IMG/VR virus record: IMGVR_UViG_3300025137_003799
Coordinates: 15,711 to 79,710 of that record
Strand: one strand, 5' to 3'
Length of the DNA stretch: 64,000 nucleotides
From: a virus
The translations under genes and the position numbers were made by a program. This document shows, piece by piece, positions 26,042 to 59,435 of this stretch; positions within the stretch are counted from its first letter, which is position 1; each line of letters begins with the position of its first letter. Under the pieces are notes generated by a model, which worked only from the letters and a program-made list of their open reading frames with translations, had not been told where the DNA came from and did no database searches.

Positions 26042-26347
26042 ATGGCAATCATAAGAAAAGATAGATCATTCGACAAGATTTTTGATGAAGTAACACTAGA
26101 AAAAATACCAATGCATTATATATTAGAGGTTAGATTACACCTAGCTGATGGAACAAGTATAGATCTAGACAGAAGTAAGGTAGTACATCTTAGGGATCCT
26201 AGTGAAATTACTCAAATGGTAGGCAGAACAGATGTAACTGATGTAGCAATTAGTTTAGACTATGAGAATATTAAAAAGGATATCAGTAATAAAGTTAAAG
26301 GTGTATTGGGTACGTTCTTTAAAGAAGATAAAGAGGAACCAAAATGA
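26042..26347 (+). CDS. hypothetical protein
   Basis: RBS AAGGAG; AATAAATA upstream. Confidence 0.7.
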   Translation: MAIIRKDRSFDKIFDEVTLEKIPMHYILEVRLHLADGTSIDLDRSKVVHLRDPSEITQMVGRTDVTDVAISLDYENIKKDISNKVKGVLGTFFKEDKEEPK

Positions 26348-27027
26348 GTAATGAATATGTAAGTCCTCTAGCGACTCAGGAATATAAAGGTCCTGGAGAC
26401 TACTTGGGTGCAATAAAAGAACACTTTGACAAACAGAATTATTCAAGAGAACGATGGGCTACGCATTCAGAAAGTAGCCATAATCTAATACCTTATGTAA
26501 ACAATTTAAAACCAAATCTAGTATTAGATATTGGTTGTGGCACAAATCCATACAAAGGAGAAATTGATAATCTTATTGGAATGGATCTTGGGAATTATCC
26601 TGAAGCTGATATTAACCTGAGTTGCAATAGAGTACATGAACTAGGTATTTTTCAGCCGGGTTGTGCTGATGTAGTAATGGCTCTAGGTTCAATTAACTTT
26701 GGATCATTTGAAGATATTAAAAGACAGATCAGTATATGTATTGATTGGTGTAAACCTGGCGGACAACTTATAATGAGATGTAGATTAGGAAAAGATAATC
26801 CAAGGAACAGAAATAATGATAGACATCTATTTAAAACGTTTAATCAACATCCTTGGAAATGGGATCAAATATATGAGATCACTGAACTCTGGAAAGACCG
26901 TGTAGAATTTTTACACGAGCCAATACCAGAAACAGCCGCTGGAGGCGATACTAATGGCGCTGGGCATGGTAAGCCTGATCCTAATAGAAATATAGACTTA
27001 GCAGTCTGGTACTGGAGAAAACTATGA
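26344..27027 (+). CDS. class I SAM-dependent methyltransferase
   Basis: VLDIGCGTN, DVVMALGSINF, KPGG. Confidence 0.8.
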   Translation: MSNEYVSPLATQEYKGPGDYLGAIKEHFDKQNYSRERWATHSESSHNLIPYVNNLKPNLVLDIGCGTNPYKGEIDNLIGMDLGNYPEADINLSCNRVHELGIFQPGCADVVMALGSINFGSFEDIKRQISICIDWCKPGGQLIMRCRLGKDNPRNRNNDRHLFKTFNQHPWKWDQIYEITELWKDRVEFLHEPIPETAAGGDTNGAGHGKPDPNRNIDLAVWYWRKL

Positions 27028-28172
27028 AAATAAATGATATACTTTATGAAGCATTACCGCCTGATGACAACCCTTTTGGAGACGACAAAAGATCTCAGAA
27101 AGATAAAGAAAAAGCGGCATATATGGCTAGTCTTACAAAGGTCGCAACGTGGATGGGTCCAAACAGTAAAACTTGGAATGATGCATCAAACAAACTAGCA
27201 ATTAAGATGTACAAACAAGGATACAATCCTAAAGAAATATGGGGAATAACACAAAACATAATGGGAACAGATGGTCATTGGCGCCAAGAAATAGATGATA
27301 GTGGATCTCGTCTAATTCCAAATGCTAAAGGTGATACTATGGGAGATCAGATATATCACCCTGAACTTTATAAAGCATATCCAGGAATGAGAGACATACC
27401 AATTGATGCAAATTGGGACAACAGAGGATCTAGTGCTGGAGGAATGGTAAGTAATGGTAAAATTTATATTGGAAGTTACTACTCAGATGATAAAACTAAA
27501 ATTGAAGACAGACGAAGACTTGGAACAGGAAATCACGAATGGGGTCATGTAATTCAAAATAAATTTGAACCAAAATTTAGTGACGGAGACAATCCAAGGA
27601 CAGACTTAATTACAACAGTTGCTAGACAAAATAATATTACTCCTGATGCGGCATACAACGCCAAGGGCGGTGAGCATATGACTAGTGCTTCTGAGGTTAG
27701 ACATGATATGTCAAAGTCGGAGAGAGCAGCTACATTTCCTGACTTAACTCAGGGTGCAGACTTTAATCCTGCAAAAAGAATTACTATAGATAAAACTGAT
27801 AAAGTTCCAGCATTTGACTATAACAATCCAAACAAAAATAGAAATGCAATTAAAGGTGTTAGTGGTCCGCTCAAGGATATAGGCCTGGGAACGAAGCATG
27901 TAACGTTTGATAATCCACATCTTACTGACATATATCGAGATCCTAGCAAAGCTGATCTTGACAAAATTAGACGAGATTTAGCAGGAGGCAATACCTCAGG
28001 CAGTGGAGGCTCAGGTGCAGGCGGAACCAAACCTATAAAGAGACCCACTGGAAATAAAAAAATAAAGTATGGTGGAAAAGGTAAAAACGGTCTAGGAACA
28101 ATGACAAGTACGGGCCAAGTATTAGATTGGAAACCTAAATCAGACGCTCCACCAGGAGCAGACGGCAAATGA
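27024..28172 (+). CDS. LPD23-like / HExxH metallopeptidase protein, possible internal head protein
   Basis: GTDGHWRQEIDD, HPELYKAYP, HEWGH; N-terminus MKINDILYE; Gly-rich linker. Confidence 0.55.
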   Translation: MKINDILYEALPPDDNPFGDDKRSQKDKEKAAYMASLTKVATWMGPNSKTWNDASNKLAIKMYKQGYNPKEIWGITQNIMGTDGHWRQEIDDSGSRLIPNAKGDTMGDQIYHPELYKAYPGMRDIPIDANWDNRGSSAGGMVSNGKIYIGSYYSDDKTKIEDRRRLGTGNHEWGHVIQNKFEPKFSDGDNPRTDLITTVARQNNITPDAAYNAKGGEHMTSASEVRHDMSKSERAATFPDLTQGADFNPAKRITIDKTDKVPAFDYNNPNKNRNAIKGVSGPLKDIGLGTKHVTFDNPHLTDIYRDPSKADLDKIRRDLAGGNTSGSGGSGAGGTKPIKRPTGNKKIKYGGKGKNGLGTMTSTGQVLDWKPKSDAPPGADGK

Positions 28173-28360
28173 AAATAGATGATATTCTTAAATTACCCAG
28201 TATAAAAATCGGAGACGAGATCATGGTGGGTAAATTTAAGAATCGTAAAGCAGTAGTTACTGGATTTACAAAAGATGAAAATAATCAGCCTGTTTTAAAA
28301 ACAACCAAAGGCGACCAAAAACTATTTAAACCAAGGATAGTTAAACTAATGGATAAGTAA
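28169..28360 (+). CDS. small SH3/KOW-like hypothetical protein
   Basis: IKIGDEIMVGKFKN. Confidence 0.6.
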   Translation: MKIDDILKLPSIKIGDEIMVGKFKNRKAVVTGFTKDENNQPVLKTTKGDQKLFKPRIVKLMDK

Positions 28361-28361
28361 A

Positions 28362-28607
28362 ATGAAATTAGACTTACATGGCTATAGAGTCCACGATGCC
28401 TGGCATAAATTTAAATTACATATACTAGAATGTTACCATTATAAATATAAGCACACAACAATTGTAACAGGTCACGGCAAAATCTCTGAGGAGATTAAAG
28501 ACTGGTGTGTAGCCAGTCCTTACGTCAGACATGTAGAACGAATGTCCCCAAATACTGGAGCATATAAATTAACTTTCTGGAAACAGAAGAGCGGATACAA
28601 TAAATGA
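28362..28607 (+). CDS. Smr-domain protein
   Basis: LDLHGY, IVTGHG, NTGA. Confidence 0.75.
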   Translation: MKLDLHGYRVHDAWHKFKLHILECYHYKYKHTTIVTGHGKISEEIKDWCVASPYVRHVERMSPNTGAYKLTFWKQKSGYNK

Positions 28608-28870
28608 ATTTCTTTAAAAAAGCAAAACATCATCTAGCCGTAGAAACAGGCTGGGGTTACTGGTACCACTTGTGGCATAGTCTAAAAAATAGTTGGACTC
28701 TACTTGTGATTGTTTTTAAAAGTACCGTACATGGATTTTGTCCATGGATATGGAAAGCAGATGCTCCACTTGGTGTTATTAAATTATACCATCAGATTAT
28801 GAAGATAGATCATATTAACAAACAAGATAAACTGAGGCAAAAACCAAAAAATGAACGATACCGAGATTAA
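28604..28870 (+). CDS. hypothetical protein (His/Trp-rich)
   Basis: HHL...GYWYHLWHS...VHGFCPW. Confidence 0.6.
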   Translation: MNFFKKAKHHLAVETGWGYWYHLWHSLKNSWTLLVIVFKSTVHGFCPWIWKADAPLGVIKLYHQIMKIDHINKQDKLRQKPKNERYRD

Positions 28871-29429
28871 ACTTTTAACATTATTGAGTAGTTACGGTGA
28901 CATAGTTGAACTTGATTGGAAGTTCGATACTGATGCTGTGATTAAAGAACTACAGCAGAGTTCCTGGATAGAAGGAACACATGGCAAACGTGCTATTAAC
29001 TTAACTGGTCCAATAGAAGATATAGGACTGGAAGCAAAAGACAAGCATGATGCAGATCAACCAATTAATACAAACTGTACTCCGGGTATTCTCCCATTCT
29101 TTAACAAGTGGGAGAAGTTAGCACGTTGTAGAGCAGTTGAACTAAGTGCAGGTAGTTACTTTAAAATGCATCGAGATGCACATAAGATGCGTCCACAGAT
29201 GCGTGTATTCATTCCACTTAACAAGGTAGATGTACATGAATGGAATTTTATATACAATACAGAGCGTGTACTGTTTAAGCCAGGCGTTCCTTATATACTA
29301 AACACTCGCAAACAACATGGCAGTTTTGCATTTGAAGGCGGAATATATCATGTGTTGATGAGTATCTACATAACTGAACACAATGTAAAAACTGTTATGA
29401 ATATGTTACCTAACTGCAAGGAATACTAA
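28851..29429 (+). CDS. 2OG-Fe(II) oxygenase (Asp/Asn beta-hydroxylase-like)
   Basis: HRD...RVFIPL...NTRKQH. Confidence 0.75.
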   Translation: MNDTEIKLLTLLSSYGDIVELDWKFDTDAVIKELQQSSWIEGTHGKRAINLTGPIEDIGLEAKDKHDADQPINTNCTPGILPFFNKWEKLARCRAVELSAGSYFKMHRDAHKMRPQMRVFIPLNKVDVHEWNFIYNTERVLFKPGVPYILNTRKQHGSFAFEGGIYHVLMSIYITEHNVKTVMNMLPNCKEY

Positions 29430-30610
29430 TGGATATTTGTATTGTAGGTGGCGGCACAGCAGGATGGATGACAGCAAGTTATCTAGCAAGTGTACTACCT
29501 GATAATATAACATTAATTGAAAGCCGTGATATACCAATTATTGGTGTAGGCGAGAGTACTGTTCCTAGTTTTACTGATTTTGTAAAAACTGTAGGGCTAA
29601 CAGAACAAGATCTATTTAACATTGGCAGTATTAGAAAATATACAGCAAAACATTGTGACTGGCCACGAAAAGGTAAGGATTGGTTCCATCATTTTATCTT
29701 TGATAAAACAGAAGAACAAGAACAACTACAGTGGTTAGAGAACTTGGAACTACCTGATAAGCATTGGAGACATAGTTATCATATTGATGCTACTAAGTTT
29801 AGTAGTCTATTACGTGAACGCTTTGTGGATAAGATAGACCATAATTATGATACTATTAAAAGAGTGGTATATACAGAATCCGGAATCACAAGACTTATAG
29901 GTGAAGAACGTGAATATACTGCTGACTTGTTTATAGATTGTAGTGGACTTAAACAAATACTTCTCAAAAACTTTACAAATTTAACAGAATCAAACAACAG
30001 TCTAATAAACAATAAAGCATGGGCTGGACATGCCGATTACACAGACCAAGCAGGACCAGTCTATTATACTAGAACATTTGCCATGGATGCAGGATGGCAA
30101 TGGAATATATGCTTACAAGACAGAGCAGGCTGTGGGTATGTTTTTAATGATCAACATATTGATAGTTATACAGCTAGAAAAGAATTTATAGATAAGTGTC
30201 CATTTAATCTAAGAAGAGACACACTTAAACTAATTGACTTTAAAAGCAAATGGAATACAAATCCATGGTGTAGTAATGTAGTAGCCATTGGACTTAGTGC
30301 AGGGTTCTTAGAGCCCCTAGAGAGTCAGAGCATATTCCTAACACAGATGCAGGTTCAAATGCTATGTAGACTTATAAACAAAAACAACAATAAAAAATTA
30401 TTCAATAAGTTTTGGAATATGATGATTAGACATATTGCTAAGTACCTGGAACTACATTATACTCTAAGTAGTAGAACAGATACATCATACTGGAGAAGTT
30501 TCAATAAAACAGATACAGTTGTATATAAACATTCATATAGTCCTCTCTTTCATGAGTATGGGCATTCAGCAATAGCAGAGGCATATGGAGGAAAGTTGGT
30601 TAAACAATGA
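29429..30610 (+). CDS. flavin-dependent tryptophan halogenase-like protein
   Basis: GGGTAGW, IGVGEST, K, FIDCSG, GWQWNI, GFLEPLES. Confidence 0.88.
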   Translation: MDICIVGGGTAGWMTASYLASVLPDNITLIESRDIPIIGVGESTVPSFTDFVKTVGLTEQDLFNIGSIRKYTAKHCDWPRKGKDWFHHFIFDKTEEQEQLQWLENLELPDKHWRHSYHIDATKFSSLLRERFVDKIDHNYDTIKRVVYTESGITRLIGEEREYTADLFIDCSGLKQILLKNFTNLTESNNSLINNKAWAGHADYTDQAGPVYYTRTFAMDAGWQWNICLQDRAGCGYVFNDQHIDSYTARKEFIDKCPFNLRRDTLKLIDFKSKWNTNPWCSNVVAIGLSAGFLEPLESQSIFLTQMQVQMLCRLINKNNNKKLFNKFWNMMIRHIAKYLELHYTLSSRTDTSYWRSFNKTDTVVYKHSYSPLFHEYGHSAIAEAYGGKLVKQ

Positions 30611-31560
30611 AAAAGAACACAGGAAAAAATTGGTACTCAGGTGATAGTGTAAAAGATCTTGTCGATAATGTAGATGCTGACAAGCAGATAAAAGTACAAG
30701 GCGACACTAACACAGATTCAAACTACGAAGATGAAATGTATAGTGCAGAACAAATGGAACGTCAGAAGGATATGGATAACATATTTAAAGTGGATGGTGT
30801 ACCAAGTCGTTGGCAACACAATAAACTTAGAAGCACCTGGCATTTTGATCCATTCGAGGATCCTAACGAACAGAGCTTCGTAGTACCCTGTAGATTTGAA
30901 GGCGACTTTAGTGTTGCTATTAACTATGCTCTACAGGAAGCAAAAGAGATGACGATAGGAAACTATCGTAGTCGTAACGACAGTAAACAAGATAAAGATA
31001 TGCATGATGGAGAAATCATTGATGCGGTCAACGCCAGTGGTAAAGATGATGTTAGTTGTATGTTCTATGACAAAGTAGTTCGCACAAAATTTAATAAAGA
31101 CACAGGCGAAAAGCAAGTATTAGAGAATCGTATACCTGAATATGATATACTTTTTAATGTTATTAAAGAGCTTGATGTAGATGTTCATCAGAGTCGTTTA
31201 CACATACAAAGACTAAGCCAAGTAACACCCATACATATTGACAATCAGATGCGTTATGCTCGTCCAGGCTGGGATAAGGTATGGAGAGAAGCTGGTGCAG
31301 ATAAGAATCCACTAAAGTTACGCAGGTTCCTTATACATCTACAAGACTGGACACAAGGACATGTATGGCAGTTTGGCAATACATATCATCAGGGGTATCA
31401 AGCAGGCACAGTAACAACTTATGACTGGTGTAACATGCCACATGGTACTGCAAACTTTAGTTTTATACCCAGAGTTACATTCCAAATCACAGGGTTTGTG
31501 TCTGAAAAAACACAATGGATGATTGATAATCCAGATCCAAACAGAGTTATAAGTGTTTAA
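30607..31560 (+). CDS. cupin/2OG-Fe(II) oxygenase-like protein
   Basis: HIDN...RFLIHLQDW..G..QFGN...PHGTAN..R..FQITG. Confidence 0.65.
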   Translation: MKKNTGKNWYSGDSVKDLVDNVDADKQIKVQGDTNTDSNYEDEMYSAEQMERQKDMDNIFKVDGVPSRWQHNKLRSTWHFDPFEDPNEQSFVVPCRFEGDFSVAINYALQEAKEMTIGNYRSRNDSKQDKDMHDGEIIDAVNASGKDDVSCMFYDKVVRTKFNKDTGEKQVLENRIPEYDILFNVIKELDVDVHQSRLHIQRLSQVTPIHIDNQMRYARPGWDKVWREAGADKNPLKLRRFLIHLQDWTQGHVWQFGNTYHQGYQAGTVTTYDWCNMPHGTANFSFIPRVTFQITGFVSEKTQWMIDNPDPNRVISV

Positions 31561-31891
31561 AAGATTCCGCAAATGGTTCAATATAGACCATGTTGTGGAT
31601 ATGACTGTCGATCTGTTCTTAATCCTATTTGATGTACTAACATCACCTATACTAATTGTTGTTAGATTGACACGTTGGATAATAGGCAAGTACTTGTTGG
31701 ATGGGTTGAAAAACAAAATAAAAAGACTAATACATTGGACAAAGGGTAAACCAGCACTACTACAAATTGTAATCTGGACAACAACCCTATGTGTATCACT
31801 ATTAATTCTTACATTGATGTGGTTCTTTGGACAAGCAATTACAGAACTTGCTCAGGAAATGTGGGGCCATCAAGGATTAGATATAGAATGA
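31553..31891 (+). CDS. putative membrane protein
   Basis: Two hydrophobic segments. Confidence 0.6.
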   Translation: MFKRFRKWFNIDHVVDMTVDLFLILFDVLTSPILIVVRLTRWIIGKYLLDGLKNKIKRLIHWTKGKPALLQIVIWTTTLCVSLLILTLMWFFGQAITELAQEMWGHQGLDIE

Positions 31892-32676
31892 ATCTAGAAG
31901 ACTATACAGAATACAAGCATAAGAATTTTCCAGCTACTAAAAAGGACGCTAGAGTGCCAGGTGAAACACTATTGTGGTATGGCAAGGACCAGCAGGAAAA
32001 GGATAAGACTCCGGAAGTCATGACGCTACACTTAGAACAGTCAAGGGATTGGACTGATGTAGATATTAGTTATGCTTGGAATAGCCTGGGTTATCGTGGC
32101 CCAGAGCCAGACTATACAGCAAACAAGAAGATACTACTAGCAGGCGGTTCAATGTTAATGGGCGTTGGTTTACCTATTGAAGAAACACTACCAGTAGTAC
32201 TAGCCAAACATTTTAATGCAGACTATCTAAACTTGAGTGACTATGATAGCCTAACAGAAATAACTGCACCTTTGGAGCAATTAGGTGTTGACTATGATCC
32301 TGACTATGTTATAATAGGGGATACAAGATTTGTAGTTGAAAATAATTGGCTTATGGCATTCATAAAACAGAAACTAAAACTACATGGCGTTGACATTCGC
32401 AGAGAAGATTTACAATTTTTCCAACAAGCGTTTGACAATACAAACCATAGTGTACTCACAGTATACAATGGATTCATACAAAATTTATTTCCTAAAGCAA
32501 AGGTATTATTCCTTATTGCTCCTAGGAAAAACTTTAACTTTGATACAGGGTTTGAGAATCAACTAACTATAAGCAAAGACTATATGGTTGATTTAAGCAG
32601 AGACAATGCACACCCTGGACCAAATTCAATAATAACAATAGCAAAAGAAATAATTAGGAGACTAGAAGATGGTTGA
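31888..32676 (+). CDS. SGNH-hydrolase-like protein
   Basis: NSLGYRG, LAGGS, C-terminal DNAHPG. Confidence 0.5.
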   Translation: MNLEDYTEYKHKNFPATKKDARVPGETLLWYGKDQQEKDKTPEVMTLHLEQSRDWTDVDISYAWNSLGYRGPEPDYTANKKILLAGGSMLMGVGLPIEETLPVVLAKHFNADYLNLSDYDSLTEITAPLEQLGVDYDPDYVIIGDTRFVVENNWLMAFIKQKLKLHGVDIRREDLQFFQQAFDNTNHSVLTVYNGFIQNLFPKAKVLFLIAPRKNFNFDTGFENQLTISKDYMVDLSRDNAHPGPNSIITIAKEIIRRLEDG

Positions 32677-33352
32677 TAAGCAGTATATTTTAACTGTGGG
32701 TATCGCTGGAAGTAGGTGGGGAAGAGTAGAATCAGTACTATGTAATACACATAATCACTTGATTGACAGTAGTTCATGGCGAGAATACAATATGGACAAT
32801 CCAAAAAACAACACAGGACATATGCATGCCTTTTGGGGGCCATATAATAGACTGGGTGAACAGTTTGATCAGTTGGAGTTACTTGGTGTAGAACAGTTTA
32901 GACATCAAATGGATAAAGAGTTTGATGCGACAAATCCTGCACCATATAGATTTATACGTTGTCATTGGTTTTGTTATCAACTAGAATGGTTAGTAAAAAA
33001 TTGTCCTGACATGTGGCTATTGTTTGTATTTCGCGAGCCTGAAATGAGTTTACGTTGGTGGTATGAAAGTGGCGGTTGGGATATCAGTTATCCTAATTAC
33101 AAATGGTATGGATCAGAGGCTGTGTTAGAACGACAGGTTCACGTGGAAAATAAATATATGCATAAATTCATAAAAGACAGAGGACTTGAATTTGATTATT
33201 CATTAGCAGATGCAGACAAGTGGTATGCAAAGCATATGCCTGAACTAGGAGATTTATCCGGAACAGACTGGGCAGCGGCCGCACAAGCAGATGGATTGGA
33301 TAATACACTATACCCAATACTTTACAAAGGAAACAAAGATGCTAAAAACTAG
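32669..33352 (+). CDS. sulfotransferase-like P-loop protein (paralog A)
   Basis: VGIAGSRW, RCH, FVFREP; paralog of 34330. Confidence 0.45.
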   Translation: MVDKQYILTVGIAGSRWGRVESVLCNTHNHLIDSSSWREYNMDNPKNNTGHMHAFWGPYNRLGEQFDQLELLGVEQFRHQMDKEFDATNPAPYRFIRCHWFCYQLEWLVKNCPDMWLLFVFREPEMSLRWWYESGGWDISYPNYKWYGSEAVLERQVHVENKYMHKFIKDRGLEFDYSLADADKWYAKHMPELGDLSGTDWAAAAQADGLDNTLYPILYKGNKDAKN

Positions 33353-38229: not shown

Positions 38230-38231
38230 TC

Positions 38232-44838: not shown

Positions 44839-44855
44839 CCGGAAAGGTAATTTTT

Positions 44856-47499: not shown

Positions 47500-47671
47500 T
47501 CGTATGGCAGAATTAATGCAACCAATAGATCAACAAATTATGATGTGTGATGATAGAAATGATACACTAATGTTAGCATGTGCTATGTTGGAAAGATGCA
47601 AAACGATTCTAGATTACTCAATCGGTAAAGAAGGCCGTAGAGATATTATATCAGGAGCAAACGAAAGGTGA
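47477..47671 (+). CDS. hypothetical protein
   Basis: RBS AAGGAG; PIDQQIMMCD. Confidence 0.7.
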   Translation: MSDKTVTNRMAELMQPIDQQIMMCDDRNDTLMLACAMLERCKTILDYSIGKEGRRDIISGANER

Positions 47672-51068: not shown

Positions 51069-52492
51069 TGCAACGAGGACAGAAAGCCTGGGACTATAGT
51101 CATACAGAACATGCATATCCGGTTGTTCATGTGTTCCAACCTGCTAACAAAGATCTAAATAAATGGCCCATACTTAAACAAAAGCTGGGCCTAGTACAAC
51201 AAGTGGAAAGTAATAATCATTTAAGAGGTGGCGTTGTAAATCTTTACAACACTATGGAAACAAGTTGGATAGTTGCTATGCATAAAATGGGCTACCGTTA
51301 TGCATGTATATGGTTTGATGGTGCTTGGGCTGATACACATGATTTTAATTTAGCACTACTTACAGAAATAGATAGATTAAATAAAACAGAATGGTTAGCC
51401 GCCGGACAAATACAAGCAAGAGATGATGAATACCCTTTCTTTACTCGTAACTGTGTACTACTAAACATTGCTACTTGGATGGCACAGGATCAACCCAATC
51501 CACATGTACAGCCTCCAGTCTATCCCAACTACATTGTAGTTGATGGCTTTGAAGATTCATGTTACAGTCTAGTGGAAGCAGAACCTACAGATCTAAGCTG
51601 GATGATATTTAATAAAGCTCAGCATTTTGCCAACGCTTGGATTGCCTGGAGTTTGAGACGACATCTAACAGTACCCGGACTAAGTGATGACTTTGCAGAT
51701 ACAATTACATTTACTCGTCCTATAAATGGTACAGATGAATTTCAGAAGGGTATTAGTGGAGAAGCATATGATCCAGAGCCTCTGAGCCACAGAGCCAAGT
51801 ATATGTGCAAACGATTAACTGATGTATCATCACCCATATACTTTGTTAACACTGAAAACTCAAGACCCGAAACAGTTGACTCACTAGTGGGTAGTAACTT
51901 TGAACAGTATGTAGGACCCTGTGCTGGTTTTAAATTATTATATTATGCATACAAGTATGGTGTTTCAGAATCAACAGAGTTTTTATTCTATGACTTTGAT
52001 CCAGATAGTGTGAAGTTTAAACAGGATACGCTTGAACATTGGACGGGCGATAACTTTGTTGCTTGGGTTAAGCAGTGGATATCAGCACACCCTGGAGTTA
52101 ACACAGAGCTTGAACATCAAGTACAGGAAAAGTGGGCGACTACGCTGGAACAGTTCGGTGGAGAATCAAGTTTCAAACGCTTCTGGGCAAGAGTACAGTC
52201 AGCTAAGTGGCAATGTTGTCAAGTGGATCTAATTAACGATTACCAACAGTTGGTAAATACTATGCAACACAAAAGAACATTCTTTTGGAGTAGTAATATC
52301 TATAGTTACATGCCAATTAAACTCTCCAGTGACAGCTTTGCAATGGAAAATAGTTTTATTAATATAATTAAAACGCTTAACACTAAACCCGACAGTTGGT
52401 TTAGTGGAACAGACATCAATGACAATGATCTAATGTGTCCAAGTACCGCAATACTAAGTGTACAGGACAACAACAATATAGGATTCGAATAA
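51068..52492 (+). CDS. two-domain hypothetical protein (paralog of 52496)
   Basis: WFDGAW, LLNI..W, YFVNTE, PCAG, YDFD, SNIY. Confidence 0.7.
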   Translation: MQRGQKAWDYSHTEHAYPVVHVFQPANKDLNKWPILKQKLGLVQQVESNNHLRGGVVNLYNTMETSWIVAMHKMGYRYACIWFDGAWADTHDFNLALLTEIDRLNKTEWLAAGQIQARDDEYPFFTRNCVLLNIATWMAQDQPNPHVQPPVYPNYIVVDGFEDSCYSLVEAEPTDLSWMIFNKAQHFANAWIAWSLRRHLTVPGLSDDFADTITFTRPINGTDEFQKGISGEAYDPEPLSHRAKYMCKRLTDVSSPIYFVNTENSRPETVDSLVGSNFEQYVGPCAGFKLLYYAYKYGVSESTEFLFYDFDPDSVKFKQDTLEHWTGDNFVAWVKQWISAHPGVNTELEHQVQEKWATTLEQFGGESSFKRFWARVQSAKWQCCQVDLINDYQQLVNTMQHKRTFFWSSNIYSYMPIKLSSDSFAMENSFINIIKTLNTKPDSWFSGTDINDNDLMCPSTAILSVQDNNNIGFE

Positions 52493-52495
52493 TAA

Positions 52496-53959
52496 ATGGA
52501 AATGAATATACACTTTAAAGATGAAGGTAAAGAAATAATACACGTCTTTACAGGAACAGGTGACGGTGCTGAAACAGAACCTGAACTAACTGCACACTTA
52601 AGACAGATACTAAAAATAAAACTAACTAATTCTTGTGACTACAGTTGGTGTGAGCTGGGTGATCCCTATAACAAATCCTGGATTAAACATCTAGCTAACT
52701 TGGGATACCACTTAGCAGTTGTATGGTATGATGGTGCATGGCCAGAGAGTTCAGATTTAGAAACAGAACTAAAGAGTTGGTGGGCTAAACAAAGCATTTC
52801 AGATACTCCCTGGGTGTTTAGTGGACAATTAATATATAGAGCTGATCGCGAACGTCCTGACTATCCACATGTATATCCGGGTTGTGCTATTATTAATCTA
52901 CAGGAATACTTAGTAGCAGGCGAACCCAGTCCTTTATTCTTTGATACAGCAACTCGTATGCCTTGCTTTCGTCTAAGTGGTGAAAATATACATGATGATT
53001 ATACTCCAACTTGGATTGAGCGTGATGCGGGCGAGCTGTCAAAAGAATCACATACCTTTCCCGGAACATATCTGGATCATCTAATACCAAACAGTTTAGT
53101 AAAAGATTATAGAGTAATTAACTTACCACAGGCCATACGTAGAAATATGCACAGTTGTTATCCTGAAGATGATATTGAATCAACTAAGAAATGGTTATTG
53201 GATCCGGACTTTTTAAAAGACAAAACACCACAAGAAGTAAAGGAGTTTGGCTATACCCTACCGGAAGACAAAATGGAATTGTATGGTTACAAGATACAAC
53301 AGTTTCAAGTACTGTATGTTACCAACACAGAGAATGTACCCAAGCGAGATAGTGAACTTGATTCAGTAGGCTTTACTAAACATGTTGTACCCTGTGCCGG
53401 ATTACATCAGTTCTGGCATTTGTTACAGGATCAGGATACTCTAAGTTCAGTACTATGGTATGACTTTAATCCCTATGCAATTCAATGGACAGAGATGATC
53501 CTAATGGAATGGGACGGCAGAGACTTTGTTAAGTTTTATGAAGATAATATTTCACGAATCATTTCAGATGGTGTTATTGCTGAGGACTGTGTTATATTTA
53601 ATCCTGAACTATATCATGAACTAGTAGCGACTATAGGAGAAGATTCAACAGGACAATTACAGGGTTGGGATTATATACAGAGTCTAGATCATGACTTTTT
53701 AGAGTGTGACATAGTAAATAACTGGAGAGAGTTTTGTGAAACAATTGGTTATAACAATCGTTTGTTTCTACAGTTAACAAATATCTGGCAATATGAAAGT
53801 AATTATTTAAATACAACGGCACTACAAGCACAGACAAGTTTTTTAAATATAATTAAAACGCTGTTGGATACAAATTTAGATGTTTATTTTACTGGCAACT
53901 CACCGGGAGGACAACATTTTACTTACGCTAATATGCGATTACATAGGAGTATACTATAA
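52496..53959 (+). CDS. two-domain hypothetical protein (paralog of 51068)
   Basis: WYDGAW, IINL, YVTNTE, PCAG, YDFN, TNIW. Confidence 0.7.
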   Translation: MEMNIHFKDEGKEIIHVFTGTGDGAETEPELTAHLRQILKIKLTNSCDYSWCELGDPYNKSWIKHLANLGYHLAVVWYDGAWPESSDLETELKSWWAKQSISDTPWVFSGQLIYRADRERPDYPHVYPGCAIINLQEYLVAGEPSPLFFDTATRMPCFRLSGENIHDDYTPTWIERDAGELSKESHTFPGTYLDHLIPNSLVKDYRVINLPQAIRRNMHSCYPEDDIESTKKWLLDPDFLKDKTPQEVKEFGYTLPEDKMELYGYKIQQFQVLYVTNTENVPKRDSELDSVGFTKHVVPCAGLHQFWHLLQDQDTLSSVLWYDFNPYAIQWTEMILMEWDGRDFVKFYEDNISRIISDGVIAEDCVIFNPELYHELVATIGEDSTGQLQGWDYIQSLDHDFLECDIVNNWREFCETIGYNNRLFLQLTNIWQYESNYLNTTALQAQTSFLNIIKTLLDTNLDVYFTGNSPGGQHFTYANMRLHRSIL

Positions 53960-54696
53960 TGTGGTATGAAGGAGACATACAAAAATTTGAAGATGTAAAT
54001 GAAGAAACTGTATTATTCTTTATGGAGAACGAACACCTAAAACCAAAATTTGCTGGTGTTGATAATAGTGAACTATTACTAAAATCTGATGATTTGAATA
54101 CTATAGGTGATGTTACAAACTATCCCTGGGCACCTGTTGATATCGCAGTACCCTGGAAAGAAATATTTGACGAAGCGAATCATTTGTTGTATACTAGTTG
54201 TTATACACTACACCGTCCCGATTCAAGTGGCTGGTTAAGTTTGTGTATGTATGGTATGAGTTCAGTACATACAAATGTTCCGGAAGACTATGGACTACCG
54301 GATAGTGCTGAGAATGATTTGAGCGATTGGACAGATATATCAAAATTTTGTCCTCGTACTAAGGAATGGATGCAGGATGAAATGTTGTATGAACGTTTTA
54401 GTCGTGTACGTTTCATGGCAGTATTACCGGGAGGATGGTTGGCTCCGCATGCGGATAAAGACACCATGGGTTTCGGTGCTACCAATGTGGCAATTAATAA
54501 TCCAGATGGTTGTGGATTAGTAATGGAAGACTGGGGTACGTTGCCTTTTACTCCGGGTTCAGTATTTAAAATTAATACTGGATACAAACATGCAGTATGG
54601 AATAGAAGCGAGGAACCTCGTATACATATGATATTTGATGGCGACCCAAGTGACGACTTTAAAAGAAAGGTCAATACTGGCTATGCCGGAATGTAA
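53959..54696 (+). CDS. 2OG-Fe(II) oxygenase (Asp/Asn beta-hydroxylase-like)
   Basis: RVRFM..PGG..PHAD; HAVWNRSEEPRIHMI. Confidence 0.8.
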   Translation: MWYEGDIQKFEDVNEETVLFFMENEHLKPKFAGVDNSELLLKSDDLNTIGDVTNYPWAPVDIAVPWKEIFDEANHLLYTSCYTLHRPDSSGWLSLCMYGMSSVHTNVPEDYGLPDSAENDLSDWTDISKFCPRTKEWMQDEMLYERFSRVRFMAVLPGGWLAPHADKDTMGFGATNVAINNPDGCGLVMEDWGTLPFTPGSVFKINTGYKHAVWNRSEEPRIHMIFDGDPSDDFKRKVNTGYAGM

Positions 54697-55657
54697 GATT
54701 TTTGATCACGGAGTTTGTGTAGGGCCAACAGGTGCAGTTAGGCCTTGTTGTGCTTTTATGACACAGGGCATTCCAAATATGCGGTGGGAAGAAAATTGGA
54801 GACCTCGACATGATGCTTGGCGAGAAAAATCAAAAACTACATGGCTTGATCAATGTATAGAATGTAAACAGGATGAAGAAATAAATGGTCACAGTCTACG
54901 CATGTACTACAATGAAGAACTGGAATACGCTGAAGGTATTAAGTATTGGGATTTAAAAATTAACAATACATGCAATCTAGCTTGTAGAATGTGTGATCCA
55001 ACTTCATCAAGTATCTGGCAACAGATAGCAATAAACGATCCGGACAGGCAACTAGCTTCACATTATCACAACAAAGTAGATGGAAAGTGGCATAAGGAAG
55101 CAAAAGACTTTTTATATAGAATGGTTGACGCAAGTCACGTAAAGTTTACAGGTGGAGAACCATTTCTAATACCACAAGTTAAGAAAATTATTGAAGGGCT
55201 AATAGATATGGACGTTGCGGCCGCTGTTAACCTACAATTAATTACAAACGGTACACACAATATATCAAAATGGAACCATTTGTTTGCGGAATTCAAAAGA
55301 GTAAATATAAGTATAAGTTTAGATGCTATCGGAAAACGTTACGAATATATCCGTCCGGGTGCTTCGTGGGAACAAGTTAGCACTAATGTACTGGATTGGA
55401 ATGCTTCAAAAGGTAAAAATAGTAACATATGGATTACAGCCCTACCAATGATTTTAAATAAAGATCATTTATGGCAAGTAGAAGAATGGTGTAGCAAAAA
55501 TAAATTAAATTTTGGGGCAGCATCACCTTGTATTAATCCAGCGTTTTTACGCACTACAGCGTGGGACGATCCAAAATTAAGAGTTAAGTTTATAGAACAA
55601 ATGGAAATATTGGACAAAATACACAACACCAACTGGAGAGACTTCGTAAATGAGTAA
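54683..55657 (+). CDS. radical SAM protein, N-terminal SPASM/twitch-like domain
   Basis: C..RPCC..CIEC; CNLACRMC; TGGEP. Confidence 0.9.
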   Translation: MPECKIFDHGVCVGPTGAVRPCCAFMTQGIPNMRWEENWRPRHDAWREKSKTTWLDQCIECKQDEEINGHSLRMYYNEELEYAEGIKYWDLKINNTCNLACRMCDPTSSSIWQQIAINDPDRQLASHYHNKVDGKWHKEAKDFLYRMVDASHVKFTGGEPFLIPQVKKIIEGLIDMDVAAAVNLQLITNGTHNISKWNHLFAEFKRVNISISLDAIGKRYEYIRPGASWEQVSTNVLDWNASKGKNSNIWITALPMILNKDHLWQVEEWCSKNKLNFGAASPCINPAFLRTTAWDDPKLRVKFIEQMEILDKIHNTNWRDFVNE

Positions 55658-56861
55658 AAAATTACCAAGTGATACATTTTGCGTTTTACCTTTTATGCAC
55701 GCCGCAGTAAGTCCTACTGGCAGTTTTAGAGTATGTTGTAATAGTAATCCTAAAAATAATAAAATTATGAAAACTCCCGAGAAGGAGTTTAAAATGTTTA
55801 GAGATGATATTAACGAAGCATGGAACTCAGCAGACTATAAAAAGATTCGTAAGGAATTTATAGCTGGTGAACGTCCTGAAACATGTCAACGTTGTTTTAG
55901 AGAAGAAGATGCAGGCATACGTTCACCACGTATAGGTTACAATGAAAAGTGGTGGCGAGATGATGTACAAGTAGCAGAGGAAATACCTTTAGATGTACGT
56001 TATGTTGATATACGATTAGGTAATTTGTGTAATTTAAAATGTCGTATGTGTAATCCCTGGAGCTCAAGTATGTGGGTTAAGGATTGGAATAAGATTGTAG
56101 ACACAGCAGAACTGGCACCTAACGAACCACTTAGTGATAAAGATTTATCCTGGATGGGACAGCTGGGTGAGTGGCCAGATCGTGAACAGACAGGTGTTAA
56201 CTTTGTTGAAATAGCAAGTACTATTAAAGAAATATATTTAACTGGCGGTGAACCCACACTAGCCACAAGTCAGTATGCACTATTTGATTATTGTATTAAA
56301 AATGATCTAGCCGCCGGCATTAAATTAAAATATAATACTAATTTAACAAATGTACCGGACAAAATGATTGATTATTGGAGTCACTTTAAAGGCGTACAAC
56401 TTAATGCAAGTATTGATGCAACAGGTGCCCGTGACAGATACATTCGTTATCCCAGCAGTTGGAAACGTATTGTGGAAATCTTTGACAAACTAAACGCTCT
56501 ACCCAATGTAGCAATGCAGATACATTGTACAGTTCAGGGACTAAACATGTGTGCAATGCCAGAACTATTGGATTGGATTAAGAGCAAGGGATTACGAGAT
56601 GATCAGATATATTTAAATATATTAAATCATCCAGAAAGTATGAATATACGAACCCTTCCTCATGAACTGAAGGTAATGGCAGAAAATAGCCTACAGGACT
56701 ACTTGCACATACCAAAAGTATCTGATACAATCAAGTATATGTGGGCAGAAGACTGGCATGAGAAACGCTGGAAAGAGTTTGTAGCGTTTAATACCAAAGC
56801 AGATGAATTACAAAAAGGAAATCTATTGGAAGTATGTCCGGAGTTTGCTGGGCATGTCTGA
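55650..56861 (+). CDS. radical SAM protein, N-terminal SPASM/twitch-like domain
   Basis: FCVLPF..RVCC..CQRC; CNLKCRMC; TGGEP. Confidence 0.9.
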   Translation: MSKKLPSDTFCVLPFMHAAVSPTGSFRVCCNSNPKNNKIMKTPEKEFKMFRDDINEAWNSADYKKIRKEFIAGERPETCQRCFREEDAGIRSPRIGYNEKWWRDDVQVAEEIPLDVRYVDIRLGNLCNLKCRMCNPWSSSMWVKDWNKIVDTAELAPNEPLSDKDLSWMGQLGEWPDREQTGVNFVEIASTIKEIYLTGGEPTLATSQYALFDYCIKNDLAAGIKLKYNTNLTNVPDKMIDYWSHFKGVQLNASIDATGARDRYIRYPSSWKRIVEIFDKLNALPNVAMQIHCTVQGLNMCAMPELLDWIKSKGLRDDQIYLNILNHPESMNIRTLPHELKVMAENSLQDYLHIPKVSDTIKYMWAEDWHEKRWKEFVAFNTKADELQKGNLLEVCPEFAGHV

Positions 56862-58005
56862 TACATATTGCAATGAGCCCTGGAGAACCGCACACTATGA
56901 TGAAGTGGGTAAGCTAGGACCTTGTTGTACATATAGAGGTAAACGTCCCGACTTTACTAAAATAGATGACTACTGGTCAAGTGAGTGGTTACGAGACTTT
57001 CGTGAGAAATTAGGTACAGGCATAAAAGAAGAGGGTTGCTTTAACTGTTGGCGTAAGGAAGATCGTGGAGAATACAGCCAGAGAACAGATAAAAATAGAC
57101 GCCACGGCTATATAGATAAACCCAAACTAGAGGAATTGTTTTTAAGTTTTGGAAATATATGTAATAAAAGTTGTGGTGTATGTAGACCCAGTCGTAGCCA
57201 TTTAATTGCAAAAGAATATAAGTCAATACCCAAAGACAATAATTGGTTATTAACTTTACCCGGTAACAAAACACAGAAAGTTCTTAGTGATAAAAAATAT
57301 TCAGGACATTACTTAGAGCATTTTGAGGATTATAAGTCAGCACTTGAGTCAGCCGATACAATTTATTTGGATGGTGGTGAACCTTTTATTGTTAGTCAGT
57401 GTACAGAAATACTGGAATACTTAATTGCAAAAGGTATGACACATAAGAAGATCAAAGCCGGAACAAACGGTTCAGTTACTGATAGTCAGTTGGAACTACT
57501 GAGTAAATTTAAGTCAGTTAGTTTCCATTTAAGTATAGACGGTATAGAAGAATTATATCCAGTTGTACGCCCGCCACATGATTGGCAATGGTTCCTGGAT
57601 AGTCAGTCACGTATACAGAAGTATCCACGTATGAATATTACATATGCCTGTGTTATTCATGCATTTAATATACATCAGTTACCTCGTATGGTTCGTTACT
57701 TTATAGATCAAAGACGAGTCCATGCTAAGACACATATATTCTTTAGTCAGATAAATTCAAACAAACATTTAGAACCTAGTGTTGTACCAATAGAAGTTAT
57801 GAACCAGACGATAAAAGAATTAAAATTAATTGTTAAAACTTCAACAAATGACGACAAGCGACAAGTTAAACAGATGATTCAACATTTGGAAATGCAGTTA
57901 CAAAAAGATGATCCTGATGTTAAAAAGAGCTTTGATCTTTATTGCGATACATTTTCAAAAATAAAGAATATTAAATACGGAGAACATATACCGTGGATCG
58001 CATGA
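56854..58005 (+). CDS. radical SAM protein, N-terminal SPASM/twitch-like domain
   Basis: YCNEPW..PCC..CFNC; CNKSCGVC; GGEP. Confidence 0.9.
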   Translation: MSDTYCNEPWRTAHYDEVGKLGPCCTYRGKRPDFTKIDDYWSSEWLRDFREKLGTGIKEEGCFNCWRKEDRGEYSQRTDKNRRHGYIDKPKLEELFLSFGNICNKSCGVCRPSRSHLIAKEYKSIPKDNNWLLTLPGNKTQKVLSDKKYSGHYLEHFEDYKSALESADTIYLDGGEPFIVSQCTEILEYLIAKGMTHKKIKAGTNGSVTDSQLELLSKFKSVSFHLSIDGIEELYPVVRPPHDWQWFLDSQSRIQKYPRMNITYACVIHAFNIHQLPRMVRYFIDQRRVHAKTHIFFSQINSNKHLEPSVVPIEVMNQTIKELKLIVKTSTNDDKRQVKQMIQHLEMQLQKDDPDVKKSFDLYCDTFSKIKNIKYGEHIPWIA

Positions 58006-58562
58006 AGGATAAACGTATTATAGCAACAGGTAACCCAGAGTTTGGTGTTGCAAGTGAGATTGCACAACGCTGGCCACAGACTCAATTTGTAGGCAGAACC
58101 ACCTGGGGGTACGATTTATGTCAAGACAGCTACAAAAACAAGTTAGCCGAAAAGGCGTCTAACTATGACGTTTTTATTAACTCTAGTGCATTATGGCACT
58201 ACCACCAGACTATGCTACTAGATGTAGTGTATAAAATGCAATTGCGACTCGGCAATCGACTACATATTGTGTCTTTGGGAAGCACTACTGATCGAACTAC
58301 CAAAGGCTCAGACTGGCATTATCAACAGGAAAAGAAGGCTCTACGTTCAACAAGCAATGCATTAGGGCTTAAGAGCATATGGACAGGAGGTCCTAAAGTA
58401 AGTTACGTTACGTTCGGTACTCTGGACAACAACCAACACAAGCACCCTGACAGACGTTGTATGAGCTTGGCAGAGGCTGTTGATTGTATAGAGTATGTAC
58501 TAACAGCACCGGATCATCTATGTATTAATGAACTTAGTGTTGATCCTATACAAGTAAAATAA
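57993..58562 (+). CDS. short-chain dehydrogenase/reductase-like protein
   Basis: IATGN..GVA, DVFINS, LGS, YQQEK (YxxxK). Confidence 0.7.
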   Translation: MDRMKDKRIIATGNPEFGVASEIAQRWPQTQFVGRTTWGYDLCQDSYKNKLAEKASNYDVFINSSALWHYHQTMLLDVVYKMQLRLGNRLHIVSLGSTTDRTTKGSDWHYQQEKKALRSTSNALGLKSIWTGGPKVSYVTFGTLDNNQHKHPDRRCMSLAEAVDCIEYVLTAPDHLCINELSVDPIQVK

Positions 58563-58572
58563 GGAAAATAAA

Positions 58573-58743
58573 TTGACTCAAGATGAATATAAACCAACTA
58601 ACTGCCAAAACTGTGGAGCCTATTCCCATTGTGGCAGTACCTTTTGGAGAGACGAAAAAGACTACAATGGTGAATGGTATCAAATAAAAGTTTGTGAACA
58701 TTGCCGTTGTTCAGAATGTGTACCGAAAGCAGTATGGACCTAA
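58573..58743 (+). CDS. 56-aa Cys-rich putative Zn-binding protein
   Basis: Hand-translated from TTG after AAGGA: CQNC..HC...CEHCRCSEC. Confidence 0.65.
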   Translation: MTQDEYKPTNCQNCGAYSHCGSTFWRDEKDYNGEWYQIKVCEHCRCSECVPKAVWT

Positions 58744-59435
58744 TAATTAAATCAATTAAATATACCAATATACTTGAAAGCTGGCAAAAGCTCTGGCCAG
58801 ATCGAGAACCCCAAACCCAAGCCTATTCATCCATGTTAATGAATGGAGGGCATGATCCTGAAATTAAAAATACATTTAAATGGACGGCTTATGGAGTATA
58901 TGATTACGATAAATGTGTGGCTGTGAACGCAGGACATAAAAGTTCAAAACGAGACTACAGAACTCGTGGACTCTGGGTAGATGAAACACATCGTGGCAGA
59001 GGTATTGCGAAGATGATGTTTGATAAATTAGAACATCAAGCTAAGAGTGAATGTTGTAGATGGTTGTGGAGTTATCCCAGACTTGCGGCCTTGCCTGCTT
59101 ATATCAACAGTGGCTACGTTCCTTTTGGTAAGCCTGAACATGGGGAGTTCGATCAATGTACTAGAGCCCGTAAGGATCTAAGTTACTTAACTACTACAGT
59201 ATGGAGTGTGGATAACAATCCTTGTGAAAGTCAGCAGTGGGTAGAAGCAGTTGATGAACTAGATAAAAAGGGATTTTTATTGGGACAAAATGAACAAGTA
59301 CGTGGTAATTATATACACATAACACAACATTGGGTTAATGAATTATATGCAACGCCAATGGTTGGTGTAAAGAACTTTATGGATCCTACTGAACGTGTAT
59401 ATGGAGAGATAAACAATCCCATACATGTTTTATAA
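58734..59435 (+). CDS. GNAT acetyltransferase
   Basis: RGLWVDETHRGRGIA; ALPAY..GY. Confidence 0.8.
   Translation: MDLIIKSIKYTNILESWQKLWPDREPQTQAYSSMLMNGGHDPEIKNTFKWTAYGVYDYDKCVAVNAGHKSSKRDYRTRGLWVDETHRGRGIAKMMFDKLEHQAKSECCRWLWSYPRLAALPAYINSGYVPFGKPEHGEFDQCTRARKDLSYLTTTVWSVDNNPCESQQWVEAVDELDKKGFLLGQNEQVRGNYIHITQHWVNELYATPMVGVKNFMDPTERVYGEINNPIHVL

Follow-up and report, generated by a model that had tools for sequence, protein, structure and literature searches.

A large radical SAM tailoring cluster with a conserved core in marine phage contigs and a counterpart in Bdellovibrionota

The stretch of 64,000 nucleotides analyzed here (the window) corresponds to bases 15711-79710 of the 79.7-kb IMG/VR virus record IMGVR_UViG_3300025137_003799 and carries a real, conserved, and unusually large cluster of radical S-adenosylmethionine (SAM) tailoring genes that has a bacterial counterpart. 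A previous interpretation made from the letters alone (the sequence-only reading) had taken the whole of 26344-59435 for one multi-step system. This idea holds for 34180-58562, which is supported by synteny, by a corresponding gene set in Bdellovibrionota, and by the orthology of individual paralogs, but not for 26344-34180, including a halogenase gene, nor for a GNAT gene at the right end; the left boundary had been set too wide. We tentatively interpret the conserved core as a single pathway of several steps in which a sugar-like unit is tailored, an interpretation that we rate somewhat below an even chance. As part of it, and with the same reserve, the core at ∼34.2-58.6 kb would be one horizontally shared pathway of a marine jumbo phage. 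In the following, open reading frames (ORFs) are named by their start position in the window; G000 is the source phage contig, G001-G004 are related phage contigs, and L-numbers denote fetched loci.

Between 26344 and 59435, 35 ORFs were called, 33 on the plus strand and two on the minus strand. Neighboring genes overlap or abut at 26 of the 34 junctions, confirming the tight packing described before, and none of the 35 ORFs matches a Pfam family of nonribosomal peptide synthetases, polyketide synthases, transporters, or regulators, also as described. The conserved core is made up of the following genes.

34180-34980, +: putative "sulfotransferase-like" ORF, first gene of the core; no hidden Markov model (HMM) match; 54-57% identity in relatives
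34977-35510, +: cupin A2; HxD..H motif, no HMM match
35526-36230, +: cupin B2; HxD..H motif, no HMM match; 62% identity in relatives, same order
36276-37685, +: radical SAM enzyme 1, N-terminal twitch; NCBIfam NF033640, E 2e-122
37678-38229, +: methylthioadenosine/S-adenosylhomocysteine (MTA/SAH)-type nucleosidase; PNP_UDP_1, E 1.6e-16
38217-39455, +: radical SAM enzyme 2; NF033640, E 5e-76
39439-40581, +: radical SAM enzyme 3; NF033640, E 2e-73
40578-41843, +: radical SAM enzyme 4; NF033640, E 1e-88
41800-43020, +: amidinotransferase with canonical Asp-His-Cys triad; phmmer matches to AGAT, SxtG, and HsvA
43013-43951, -: HxD..H cupin, by motif
43911-44801, -: HxD..H cupin, KdoO-like, by motif; 61-65% identity in relatives
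44832-45926, +: amidinotransferase-fold variant, catalytic Asp replaced by His; HsvA (E 7e-26), StrB1, SxtG
46249-47499, +: radical SAM enzyme 5, lacking the twitch CC ligand pair; NF033640, E 3e-74
47668-48570, +: short fold-type-I pyridoxal phosphate (PLP) enzyme, aminotransferase-like; Aminotran_1_2, E 3e-4 (weak)
48551-49867, +: radical SAM enzyme 6; NF033640
49791-51068, +: radical SAM enzyme 7; NF033640
51068-53959, +: two paralogs, 51068 and 52496, each with a predicted GT-A fold followed by a class-I methyltransferase fold; AlphaFold2 (AF2) model and fold matches
53959-54696, +: AspH/LpxO-family Fe(II)/2-oxoglutarate (2OG) oxygenase; Pfam Asp_Arg_Hydrox, E 2.6e-12
54635-55657, +: radical SAM enzyme 8; NF033640, E 8e-50
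55650-56861, +: radical SAM enzyme 9; NF033640, E 1e-113
56803-58005, +: radical SAM enzyme 10; NF033640, E 3e-65
57993-58562, +: putative short Rossmann protein resembling short-chain dehydrogenases/reductases (SDR-like), last gene of the core; 76-79% identity in relatives; no HMM or PDB match

All ten radical SAM genes named in the sequence-only reading were recovered at their places (36276, 38217, 39439, 40578, 46249, 48551, 49791, 54635, 55650, and 56803). Pfam Radical_SAM matches each of them, nine above the curated cut-off of 29.5 bits and 48551 at 27.9 bits. All ten also exceed the curated 170 bits of NF033640 (170.1-409 bits, E 8e-50 to 2e-122), with ORF 54635 being borderline at 170.1 bits. 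NF033640, the "twitch domain-containing radical SAM protein" (N_Twi_rSAM), is characterized by an auxiliary Fe-S twitch domain that precedes the radical SAM core; accordingly placed Pfam SPASM matches are found at residues ∼10-95 of seven ORFs. Pairwise identity among the ten paralogs is 21-32%. In an alignment of 11 paralogs, Cys-127, Cys-131, and Cys-134 (CX3CX2C) as well as Gly-199, Gly-200, and Glu-201 (GGE) of the core are invariant, and a GGEP motif is common to the NF033640 paralogs of the window. Of the N-terminal auxiliary cysteines, Cys-11, Cys-79, and Cys-82 are invariant, and Cys-29 is present in 10 of the 11 sequences. ORF 46249 lacks the CC pair that supplies an auxiliary-cluster ligand and reads VVPDIIY instead, a loss shared by its ortholog in G001 and by two orthologs from Bdellovibrionota.

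The family is large, comprising 8,085 clusters at 50% identity (E <= 1e-30) among 1.84 billion representatives, and literature searches on it found no characterized member, substrate, or structure; nor did searches on Bdellovibrio, radical SAM, and SPASM turn up a functional study. Among the best 150 family representatives, ∼30 are proteins of 750-1,400 amino acids that contain two full N-terminal-twitch units in tandem, which hints that the paralogs may work in pairs.

The core is well conserved among viral relatives. In G001-G003, the genes of 34180-58562 occur in the same order with 40-83% amino acid identity, and 15 of the 17 viral loci retrieved with the 55650 ortholog at their center retain every gene of the run 46249-57993 (37-79% identity). 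ORF 36276 reaches 80-83% identity in viral relatives, and ORFs 38217 and 39439 form a duplicate pair on the phage side of the family tree. In contrast, the ORFs of 26344-34180 are absent or displaced in relatives, and the GNAT gene was found in none of the 17 viral loci.

The relatives that share the cluster are contigs of 110-205 kb with CheckV completeness of 31-56%, compared with 22% for the source record. From these completeness estimates and contig sizes, we roughly estimate a genome of ∼360 kb. A gene for the large terminase subunit is present on two of the related contigs; its product in G004 shares 55.6% identity with the terminase of the Pseudomonas jumbo phage PA5oct and matches T4-like phages more distantly. 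Together with the IMG/VR virus record itself, this makes it reasonable to call the island phage-encoded, as had been proposed. A megablast search with 20 kb against isolated phages gave no match, and Pfam models of T4 gp23 and the T4 portal matched nothing in five related contigs, the controls likewise matching nowhere. Marine and viral-fraction metagenomes contain further contigs that are nearly identical or 90-93% identical.

A bacterial counterpart emerged when 185,579 species genomes were scanned for a pattern derived from aligned 55650 orthologs. Of the 75 loci obtained, the large majority belong to Bdellovibrionota (Bdellovibrionales, Bacteriovoracaceae, Pseudobdellovibrionaceae, and Oligoflexia), and the closest cellular copies of the phage radical SAM genes lie on Bdellovibrionota chromosomes. 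Several bacterial loci are located on megabase contigs or complete chromosomes, in one case with EF-G adjoining the cluster. Members of NF033640 are present in 74 of the 75 loci with ∼2.8 copies each, and a whole-genome search found 7-16 copies per 1.9-3-Mb genome, partly in tandem arrays of six to seven. The family was detected in 31 of 151 sampled Bdellovibrionota genomes and in 2 of 151 genomes from the phylum of a Poseidonocella isolate, one of the two being the query genome itself. The 1.9-Mb Bdellovibrionales chromosome G009 (loci L103-L105) carries sixteen copies, with arrays of six to seven adjacent genes that are flanked by insertion sequence (IS)-like fragments, an AsnB-type amidotransferase, and another type of radical SAM enzyme.

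The bacterial loci share more with the phage than the radical SAM family. Orthologs of the amidinotransferase-fold protein 44832 occur in four loci (up to 46% identity, reached in L033 and L036), orthologs of the PLP enzyme 47668 in 13 (up to 46% identity), and homologs of the SDR-like 57993 in nine. The loci also hold the 43911 cupin (with a weak Kdo_hydroxy match, E 1e-3, in the L033 ortholog), the AspH cupin, the 51068/52496 family, and, from a satellite mini-cluster of the window described below, a radical SAM gene of the 3177 type (34 loci) and orthologs of the unknown ORFs at 990-2655. Further companions are GT2 glycosyltransferases (15 loci), a GT1/28 enzyme, a NodU/CmcH-type carbamoyltransferase, and an ATP-binding cassette (ABC) ATPase. 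The carbamoyltransferase has a phage homolog as well: a 509-amino acid ORF at bases 74-1603 of G000 (L027), upstream of the window, shows 30-35% identity to the NodU/CmcH-type enzymes of Bdellovibrionota.

Orthology extends to individual paralogs. In a maximum-likelihood tree of 210 members, each of 46249, 48551, 49791, 55650, and 40578 is joined to particular bacterial sequences (support 0.83-1.0), and orthologs of 36276 in L036 and L107 are 59-61% identical. These paralog-specific bacterial orthologs, together with shared peculiarities such as the loss of the CC pair in 46249 and an Asp-to-His replacement in 44832, indicate that the paralogs diverged and assumed fixed individual roles before the block was exchanged between phage and bacterium. 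We consider this early divergence the strongest argument for one pathway over a heap of auxiliary genes.

Among the partner enzymes, the two amidinotransferases of the sequence-only reading are well founded: 41800 and 44832 match HsvA, StrB1, SxtG, and AGAT by phmmer, with E-values down to 7e-26 (44832 against HsvA over residues 28-362); for 41800, the match (E 1.5e-9) is strongest at the C terminus. A Pfam ADI match falls below its cut-off. Both proteins retain the catalytic Cys and His, with GGIHC and H(I/T)D aligning to AGAT, HsvA, and StrB1. The catalytic Asp (Asp-254 of AGAT, in "FDAA") is present in 41800 ("FDGA"), where the FD, H.D, and HC motifs are all visible, whereas it is replaced in 44832 ("FHAA"). 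The replacement is kept in orthologs from phages (G001-G003) and Bdellovibrionota (L033, L036, and L052), whereas AGAT, HsvA, StrB1, and SxtG have Asp. Because of this exchange, we regard 44832 as a variant of the fold rather than a canonical amidinotransferase, and its sequence suggests altered chemistry. HsvA, StrB1, SxtG, and AGAT all act on small-molecule amines.

Other function labels stand in part. ORF 37678 belongs to the PNP_UDP_1 superfamily, but its assignment as MTA/SAH nucleosidase does not extend to the equivalog level (best NCBIfam nucleosidase model 87.9 bits versus a cut-off of 129). The PLP enzyme rests on its weak Aminotran_1_2 match. Of seven proposed HxD..H oxygenases, the AspH-type 53959 is recognized by HMM, whereas the other six (28851, 34977, 30607, 35526, 43013, and 43911) show the motif without an HMM or PDB match. 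The same applies to the two sulfotransferase-like ORFs, the SGNH-like and SDR-like ORFs, and the methyltransferase-like 26344, which were named from motifs. PHROGs matched none of ten unannotated ORFs, NCBIfam matched neither the amidinotransferases nor the PLP enzyme, the cupins, or the SDR-like ORF, and phmmer against the PDB returned nothing meaningful for 47668, 55650, 43911, 57993, and 53959.

ORFs 51068 and 52496, which have no Pfam match, PHROG match, or named homolog and share a conserved "WFDG" segment, could be assigned at the level of predicted folds. According to the AF2 model of 51068 (predicted local distance difference test (pLDDT) 84.5), the two proteins combine a GT-A glycosyltransferase fold with a methyltransferase fold. 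Residues 14-250 compare by VIA with the GT-A proteins majastridin (Z 10.3), mimivirus R699 (9.8), and Manic Fringe (9.7), and further with LH3/ColGalT1 (Z 8.8) and PBCV-1 A64R (Z 8.1). Residues 250-461 resemble class-I SAM methyltransferases, with Z 12.6 to a Leptospira protein and Z ∼9-10 to the OvoA methyltransferase domain, PNMT, and CheR. Foldseek searches of the PDB and BFVD agree and add viral GT25, GT2, and Fringe-like matches. In Bdellovibrionota, a module of the 51068 type is fused behind an AspH-type cupin (L033:16993-19419 and L079:2395-4596). A 766-amino acid protein that follows the 55650 ortholog in L030 was considered as a further relative and proved unrelated by hhalign.

Taken together, the enzyme set of the phage, the bacterial companions (GT2, GT1/28, carbamoyltransferase, and ABC ATPase), and the carbamoyltransferase homolog of the phage lead us to favor a pathway in which a sugar-like unit is tailored step by step and then transferred. 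The ten radical SAM enzymes would probably act on one common scaffold, each by a radical reaction of its own; this scaffold would be small and polar, most likely a sugar, cyclitol, or nucleotide sugar-derived unit. Candidate steps after hydrogen abstraction are dehydrogenation, epimerization, deoxygenation, and rearrangement. The keto and hydroxyl positions so produced would be substrates of the other enzymes, with transamination by the PLP enzyme, introduction of guanidino groups by the two amidinotransferase-fold enzymes, hydroxylation by the cupin/2OG oxygenases, and reduction by the SDR-like protein. Transfer and methylation of the unit may fall to the two GT-A/methyltransferase proteins. 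SAM would come from a synthetase (MetK) encoded elsewhere in the window, and 5'-deoxyadenosine and SAH would be removed by the nucleosidase inside the cluster; both genes suit a pathway that consumes much SAM and has to dispose of 5'-deoxyadenosine. Whereas family memberships, paralogy, synteny, and the gene set in common with Bdellovibrionota come directly from the analysis, as does the predicted fold of 51068, the nature of the substrate, the sequence of reactions, the acceptor, and the time of expression are inferred. The earlier proposal of a system that decorates a macromolecule, as opposed to one that makes a free metabolite, is plausible, as it fits the predicted GT-A/methyltransferase proteins and the missing exporter. 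It is possible, though on the doubtful side, that marine jumbo phages and predatory Bdellovibrionota share an undescribed pathway, driven by ten or more N-terminal-twitch radical SAM enzymes, to a heavily aminated, guanidinylated, and hydroxylated sugar-like compound or glycoconjugate that is used in the takeover or remodeling of Gram-negative cells; if true, both the enzyme chemistry and the class of product would be new.

Several observations weigh against the tailoring of a sugar-like unit. The cluster has no sugar-activating nucleotidyltransferase, scaffold synthase, flippase, or polymerase, and whereas sugar aminotransferases are usually of the DegT type, the PLP enzyme is, by its weak match, of class I/II. 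Radical SAM enzymes with an auxiliary cluster (SPASM/twitch) act in most cases as peptide maturases, and AspH-family oxygenases often modify protein residues. HMMs do not support six of the cupins or the "sulfotransferase," SGNH, and SDR labels, the GT-A assignment relies on Z values of 8-10, modestly above background, and co-location within 10 kb in bacteria is no proof of a single pathway. The structure model of the radical SAM protein (pLDDT 77) does not discriminate either: Foldseek found no match to it in the PDB at E <= 1e-3, and the nearest VIA neighbors of its core are almost tied (BlsE, Z 10.2; anSME, 9.9; SkfB, 9.6; viperin, 9.2), so that the fold is silent on the substrate.

An unlikely, yet serious, alternative is the modification of a protein or peptide, in which the radical SAM enzymes would act on a virion or host protein in the manner of anSME or of the maturases of ribosomally synthesized and post-translationally modified peptides (RiPPs). 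The cupins would hydroxylate this protein, the GT-A/methyltransferase proteins would glycosylate and methylate the hydroxyls following the logic of LH3/PLOD, and the amidinotransferase-fold enzymes would modify side-chain amines. The SPASM match of the N-terminal domain, weak NCBIfam side matches to many peptide maturases, and structural neighbors that include anSME, SkfB, CteB, and SuiB agree with this, as do the fusion of AspH cupin and GT-A/methyltransferase module in Bdellovibrionota, the presence of human LH3 among the fold matches, and one bacterial array that is followed by a 470-amino acid protein with a weak pilin-type N_methyl motif. However, no conserved precursor ORF is found: the gap ORFs of 37-75 amino acids (28169, 46025, 47477, and 58573) have no conserved counterpart in relatives or bacteria, and no precursor is evident beside the bacterial arrays, where IS fragments are found instead, although short or divergent peptides could escape. 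Pfam lists no PqqD or RiPP recognition element (RRE) domain for any ORF, a result that a divergent RRE could escape. Moreover, amidinotransferases and NodU-type carbamoyltransferases of known substrate act on small molecules.

Another alternative is a free metabolite, for example a sugar with guanidino or amino groups or a cyclitol of the aminoglycoside or saxitoxin type, used by the phage and likewise by the predatory bacteria in or against the host or prey cell. The enzyme list matches streptidine-, butirosin-, and saxitoxin-type tailoring sets (twitch radical SAM enzyme, aminotransferase, amidinotransferase, carbamoyltransferase, SDR, hydroxylases, and a possible sulfotransferase), and the system is common to two kinds of predator of Gram-negative cells. 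We nevertheless judge a free product improbable: the phage block contains no scaffold synthase, kinase, phosphatase, or exporter, the GT-A proteins suggest transfer to an acceptor, and nothing ties the cluster to toxicity.

There may also be no single pathway at all, the region being a hypervariable collection of unrelated auxiliary genes in which radical SAM paralogs diversify independently. The unconserved left third and GNAT gene would fit such a collection, as would the varying number of paralogs (up to ∼18 NF033640 copies above the cut-off per contig in relatives), and radical SAM cassettes that come and go in a hypervariable island have been described in pelagimyophages (Zaragoza-Solas et al. 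2020, PMC7029224). The stable order and content of the core in 15 of 17 loci, at 37-79% identity, and the one-to-one bacterial orthology with its retained, ortholog-specific active-site changes argue for fixed and distinct roles and render this explanation quite improbable. Least credible, and by a reckoning close to dismissal, is a hypermodification of phage DNA or nucleotides that extends a putative 7-deazaguanine module of the window: Campylobacter phage CP220 has a radical SAM and amidinotransferase cluster and may also have modified DNA, and viperin and BlsE are among the fold neighbors, but the putative module lies ∼20 kb from the cluster, its ORFs (5123-14531) are mostly unmatched in cluster-bearing Bdellovibrionota loci (exceptions being 8816-9508 in one locus and 12415-13173 in three loci at 23-24% identity), and the GT2 enzymes and ABC ATPase of the bacterial loci point to envelope glycans.

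Outside the core, the window contains the following features of the flanks and further genes connected with the cluster.

990-4268, +: satellite mini-cluster of two unknown ORFs, an 87-amino acid ORF, and a C-terminal-twitch/SPASM radical SAM gene; homologs adjoin N-terminal-twitch genes elsewhere
14605-15753, +: SAM synthetase (MetK); tblastn, 45-49% identity to annotated MetK genes
19580-20785, +: eleventh N-terminal-twitch radical SAM paralog, outside the island as first delimited; NF033640 (G000:35323-36441), 229 bits
26344-27027, +: methyltransferase-like ORF; motif-I-like VLDIGCG by eye; variable part of the island
27024-28870, +: LPD23-domain protein, Smr domain, and DUF6356 ORFs (non-biosynthetic); Pfam
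28851-29429, +: cupin-type HxD..H protein A1; 34% identity to paralog 34977; no HMM match
29429-30610, +: flavin-dependent tryptophan-type halogenase, short form of 393 amino acids; Pfam Trp_halogenase, E 3.6e-82
30607-31560, +: cupin-type HxD..H protein B1; 28% identity to paralog 35526; no HMM match
31789-32676, +: SGNH-like ORF, putative label; no Pfam or PHROG match
32669-33352, +: P-loop/"sulfotransferase-like" ORF, paralog of 34180, putative label; no Pfam or PHROG match
33291-34340, +: pentapeptide-repeat protein; Pfam Pentapeptide_4, E 1e-24; absent from relatives
58701-59435, +: GNAT acetyltransferase, in this phage only (0 of 17 viral loci); Pfam

The mini-cluster consists of the unknown ORFs within 990-2655, the 87-amino acid ORF at 2914-3177, and the radical SAM gene at 3177-4268, whose product carries the usual C-terminal auxiliary domain. 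Since its homologs adjoin N-terminal-twitch radical SAM genes in other loci, the system appears from gene neighborhoods to be wider than first delimited and to extend to 990-4268.

On the left flank, three genes are diverged duplicates of core genes (28851/34977, 30607/35526, and 32669/34180), and homologs of cupin A1 (28851) occur in loci L028, L090, and L048. The methyltransferase-like 26344 has no Pfam or PHROG match and, in relatives, only a weak partial match (31-36%) at another place. The Smr ORF is matched at 43-57% in relatives, again at another location, whereas the LPD23 and DUF6356 ORFs are unmatched there. These three ORFs and the pentapeptide-repeat protein had been omitted from the earlier inventory, as had the minus-strand orientation of two genes. 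The halogenase call is sound with respect to its family (277 bits versus a cut-off of 21; PDB tryptophan halogenases and VirX1 as matches), and the FAD-binding GxGxxG motif reads GGGTAGW at the N terminus. Solved tryptophan halogenases, among them VirX1 from a cyanophage, exceed this protein of 393 amino acids by ∼100-150 residues (PDB homologs have 497-554 amino acids); the match stops near chain residue 410-440, and the full-length architecture of ∼500-550 amino acids with the substrate-binding module is lacking. Its only homolog among the relatives is in G003, at 30% identity and a different place. The GNAT gene at 58701 is likewise borne out by Pfam. Between the SDR-like gene and the GNAT gene lies a Cys-rich ORF of 56 amino acids (58573-58743; eight Cys) that is not conserved in relatives.

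Late promoters had been placed at 36226 and 44799. The exact TATAAATA is present at 36226, but the site near 44799 reads CATAAATA. Late expression, which had been deduced from these sites, finds no support: TATAAATA is not enriched in the window (7 observed versus 9.9 expected), and the site at 36226 is not conserved in relatives. G002 and G003 retain an "ATAAATA...TTTATG" box that lies at 44795-44815 of the window, between divergent genes and upstream of 44832. One sequencing run of ambiguous library type, possibly RNA, contains short, nearly identical contigs that cover the cluster.

With regard to known systems, the tentative assignment to sugar-like tailoring resembles the logic of aminocyclitol and aminoglycoside pathways, in which a BtrN-type twitch radical SAM dehydrogenase is followed by an aminotransferase and the StrB1 amidinotransferase. 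The core likewise combines one-auxiliary-cluster radical SAM enzymes, a PLP aminotransferase-like enzyme, and a StrB1-related amidinotransferase. It differs from these pathways in that it contains no inositol-phosphate or 2-deoxy-scyllo-inosose synthase, DegT aminotransferase, kinase, or phosphatase, the twitch domain is N-terminal, and ten or more paralogs far exceed their usage. With RiPP SPASM/twitch maturases and anSME, the family shares a SPASM-homologous auxiliary Fe-S domain and a similar structural core, whereas the domain order is reversed, Pfam lists no RRE domain, and no conserved precursor gene was found among the small ORFs of the window or beside the bacterial arrays. The Bdellovibrionota fusions resemble human LH3/PLOD3 at the fold level in joining a 2OG oxygenase to a GT-A domain; in contrast to LH3/PLOD3, the domain order is different, the oxygenase is of the AspH type and not of the lysyl hydroxylase type, and there is an additional methyltransferase domain.

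Among phages, the Campylobacter phages CP220 and CPt10 possess exchangeable clusters of 10-12 genes with five radical SAM genes and a "glycine amidinotransferase," to which no function was assigned (Timms et al. 2010, PMC2853527). The CP220 module also encodes two GT-A-like proteins and a PAP2 phosphatase, in keeping with sugar-type chemistry; several radical SAM genes, an amidinotransferase, and GT-A-like proteins are common to both phage clusters. However, the CP220 amidinotransferase is 22-24% identical to 44832, its radical SAM proteins have the conventional domain order and gave no match to the N-terminal-twitch query (E <= 1e-5), and the module, for which a connection with Bdellovibrionota has not been described, is smaller. 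One T4-like environmental genome was reported with 12 radical SAM genes (Nishimura et al. 2017, PMC5332604), and the radical SAM cassettes mentioned above lie in variable islands of pelagimyophages (PMC7029224), in both cases without an assigned function. Those phages are also marine and uncultured and have many radical SAM genes, but the reports give gene counts without family assignment, partners, a bacterial counterpart, or a mechanism, and the present lineage differs by its PA5oct-like terminase and an implied genome of ∼360 kb.

This kind of phage module has thus been seen before and never explained: clusters with multiple radical SAM genes have been remarked on in phages since 2010, and no product or role has been found for them. 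The locus gives this problem a defined shape, with a stable core gene set, a large family, partners of amino, guanidino, and glycosyl chemistry, and a bacterial counterpart in a phylum that includes cultivable predatory bacteria, so that genetics may be possible. Solving the cluster could reveal new radical chemistry, a new decoration of envelope or virion, or a new metabolite, with relevance for phage-host and predator-prey interactions in the ocean.

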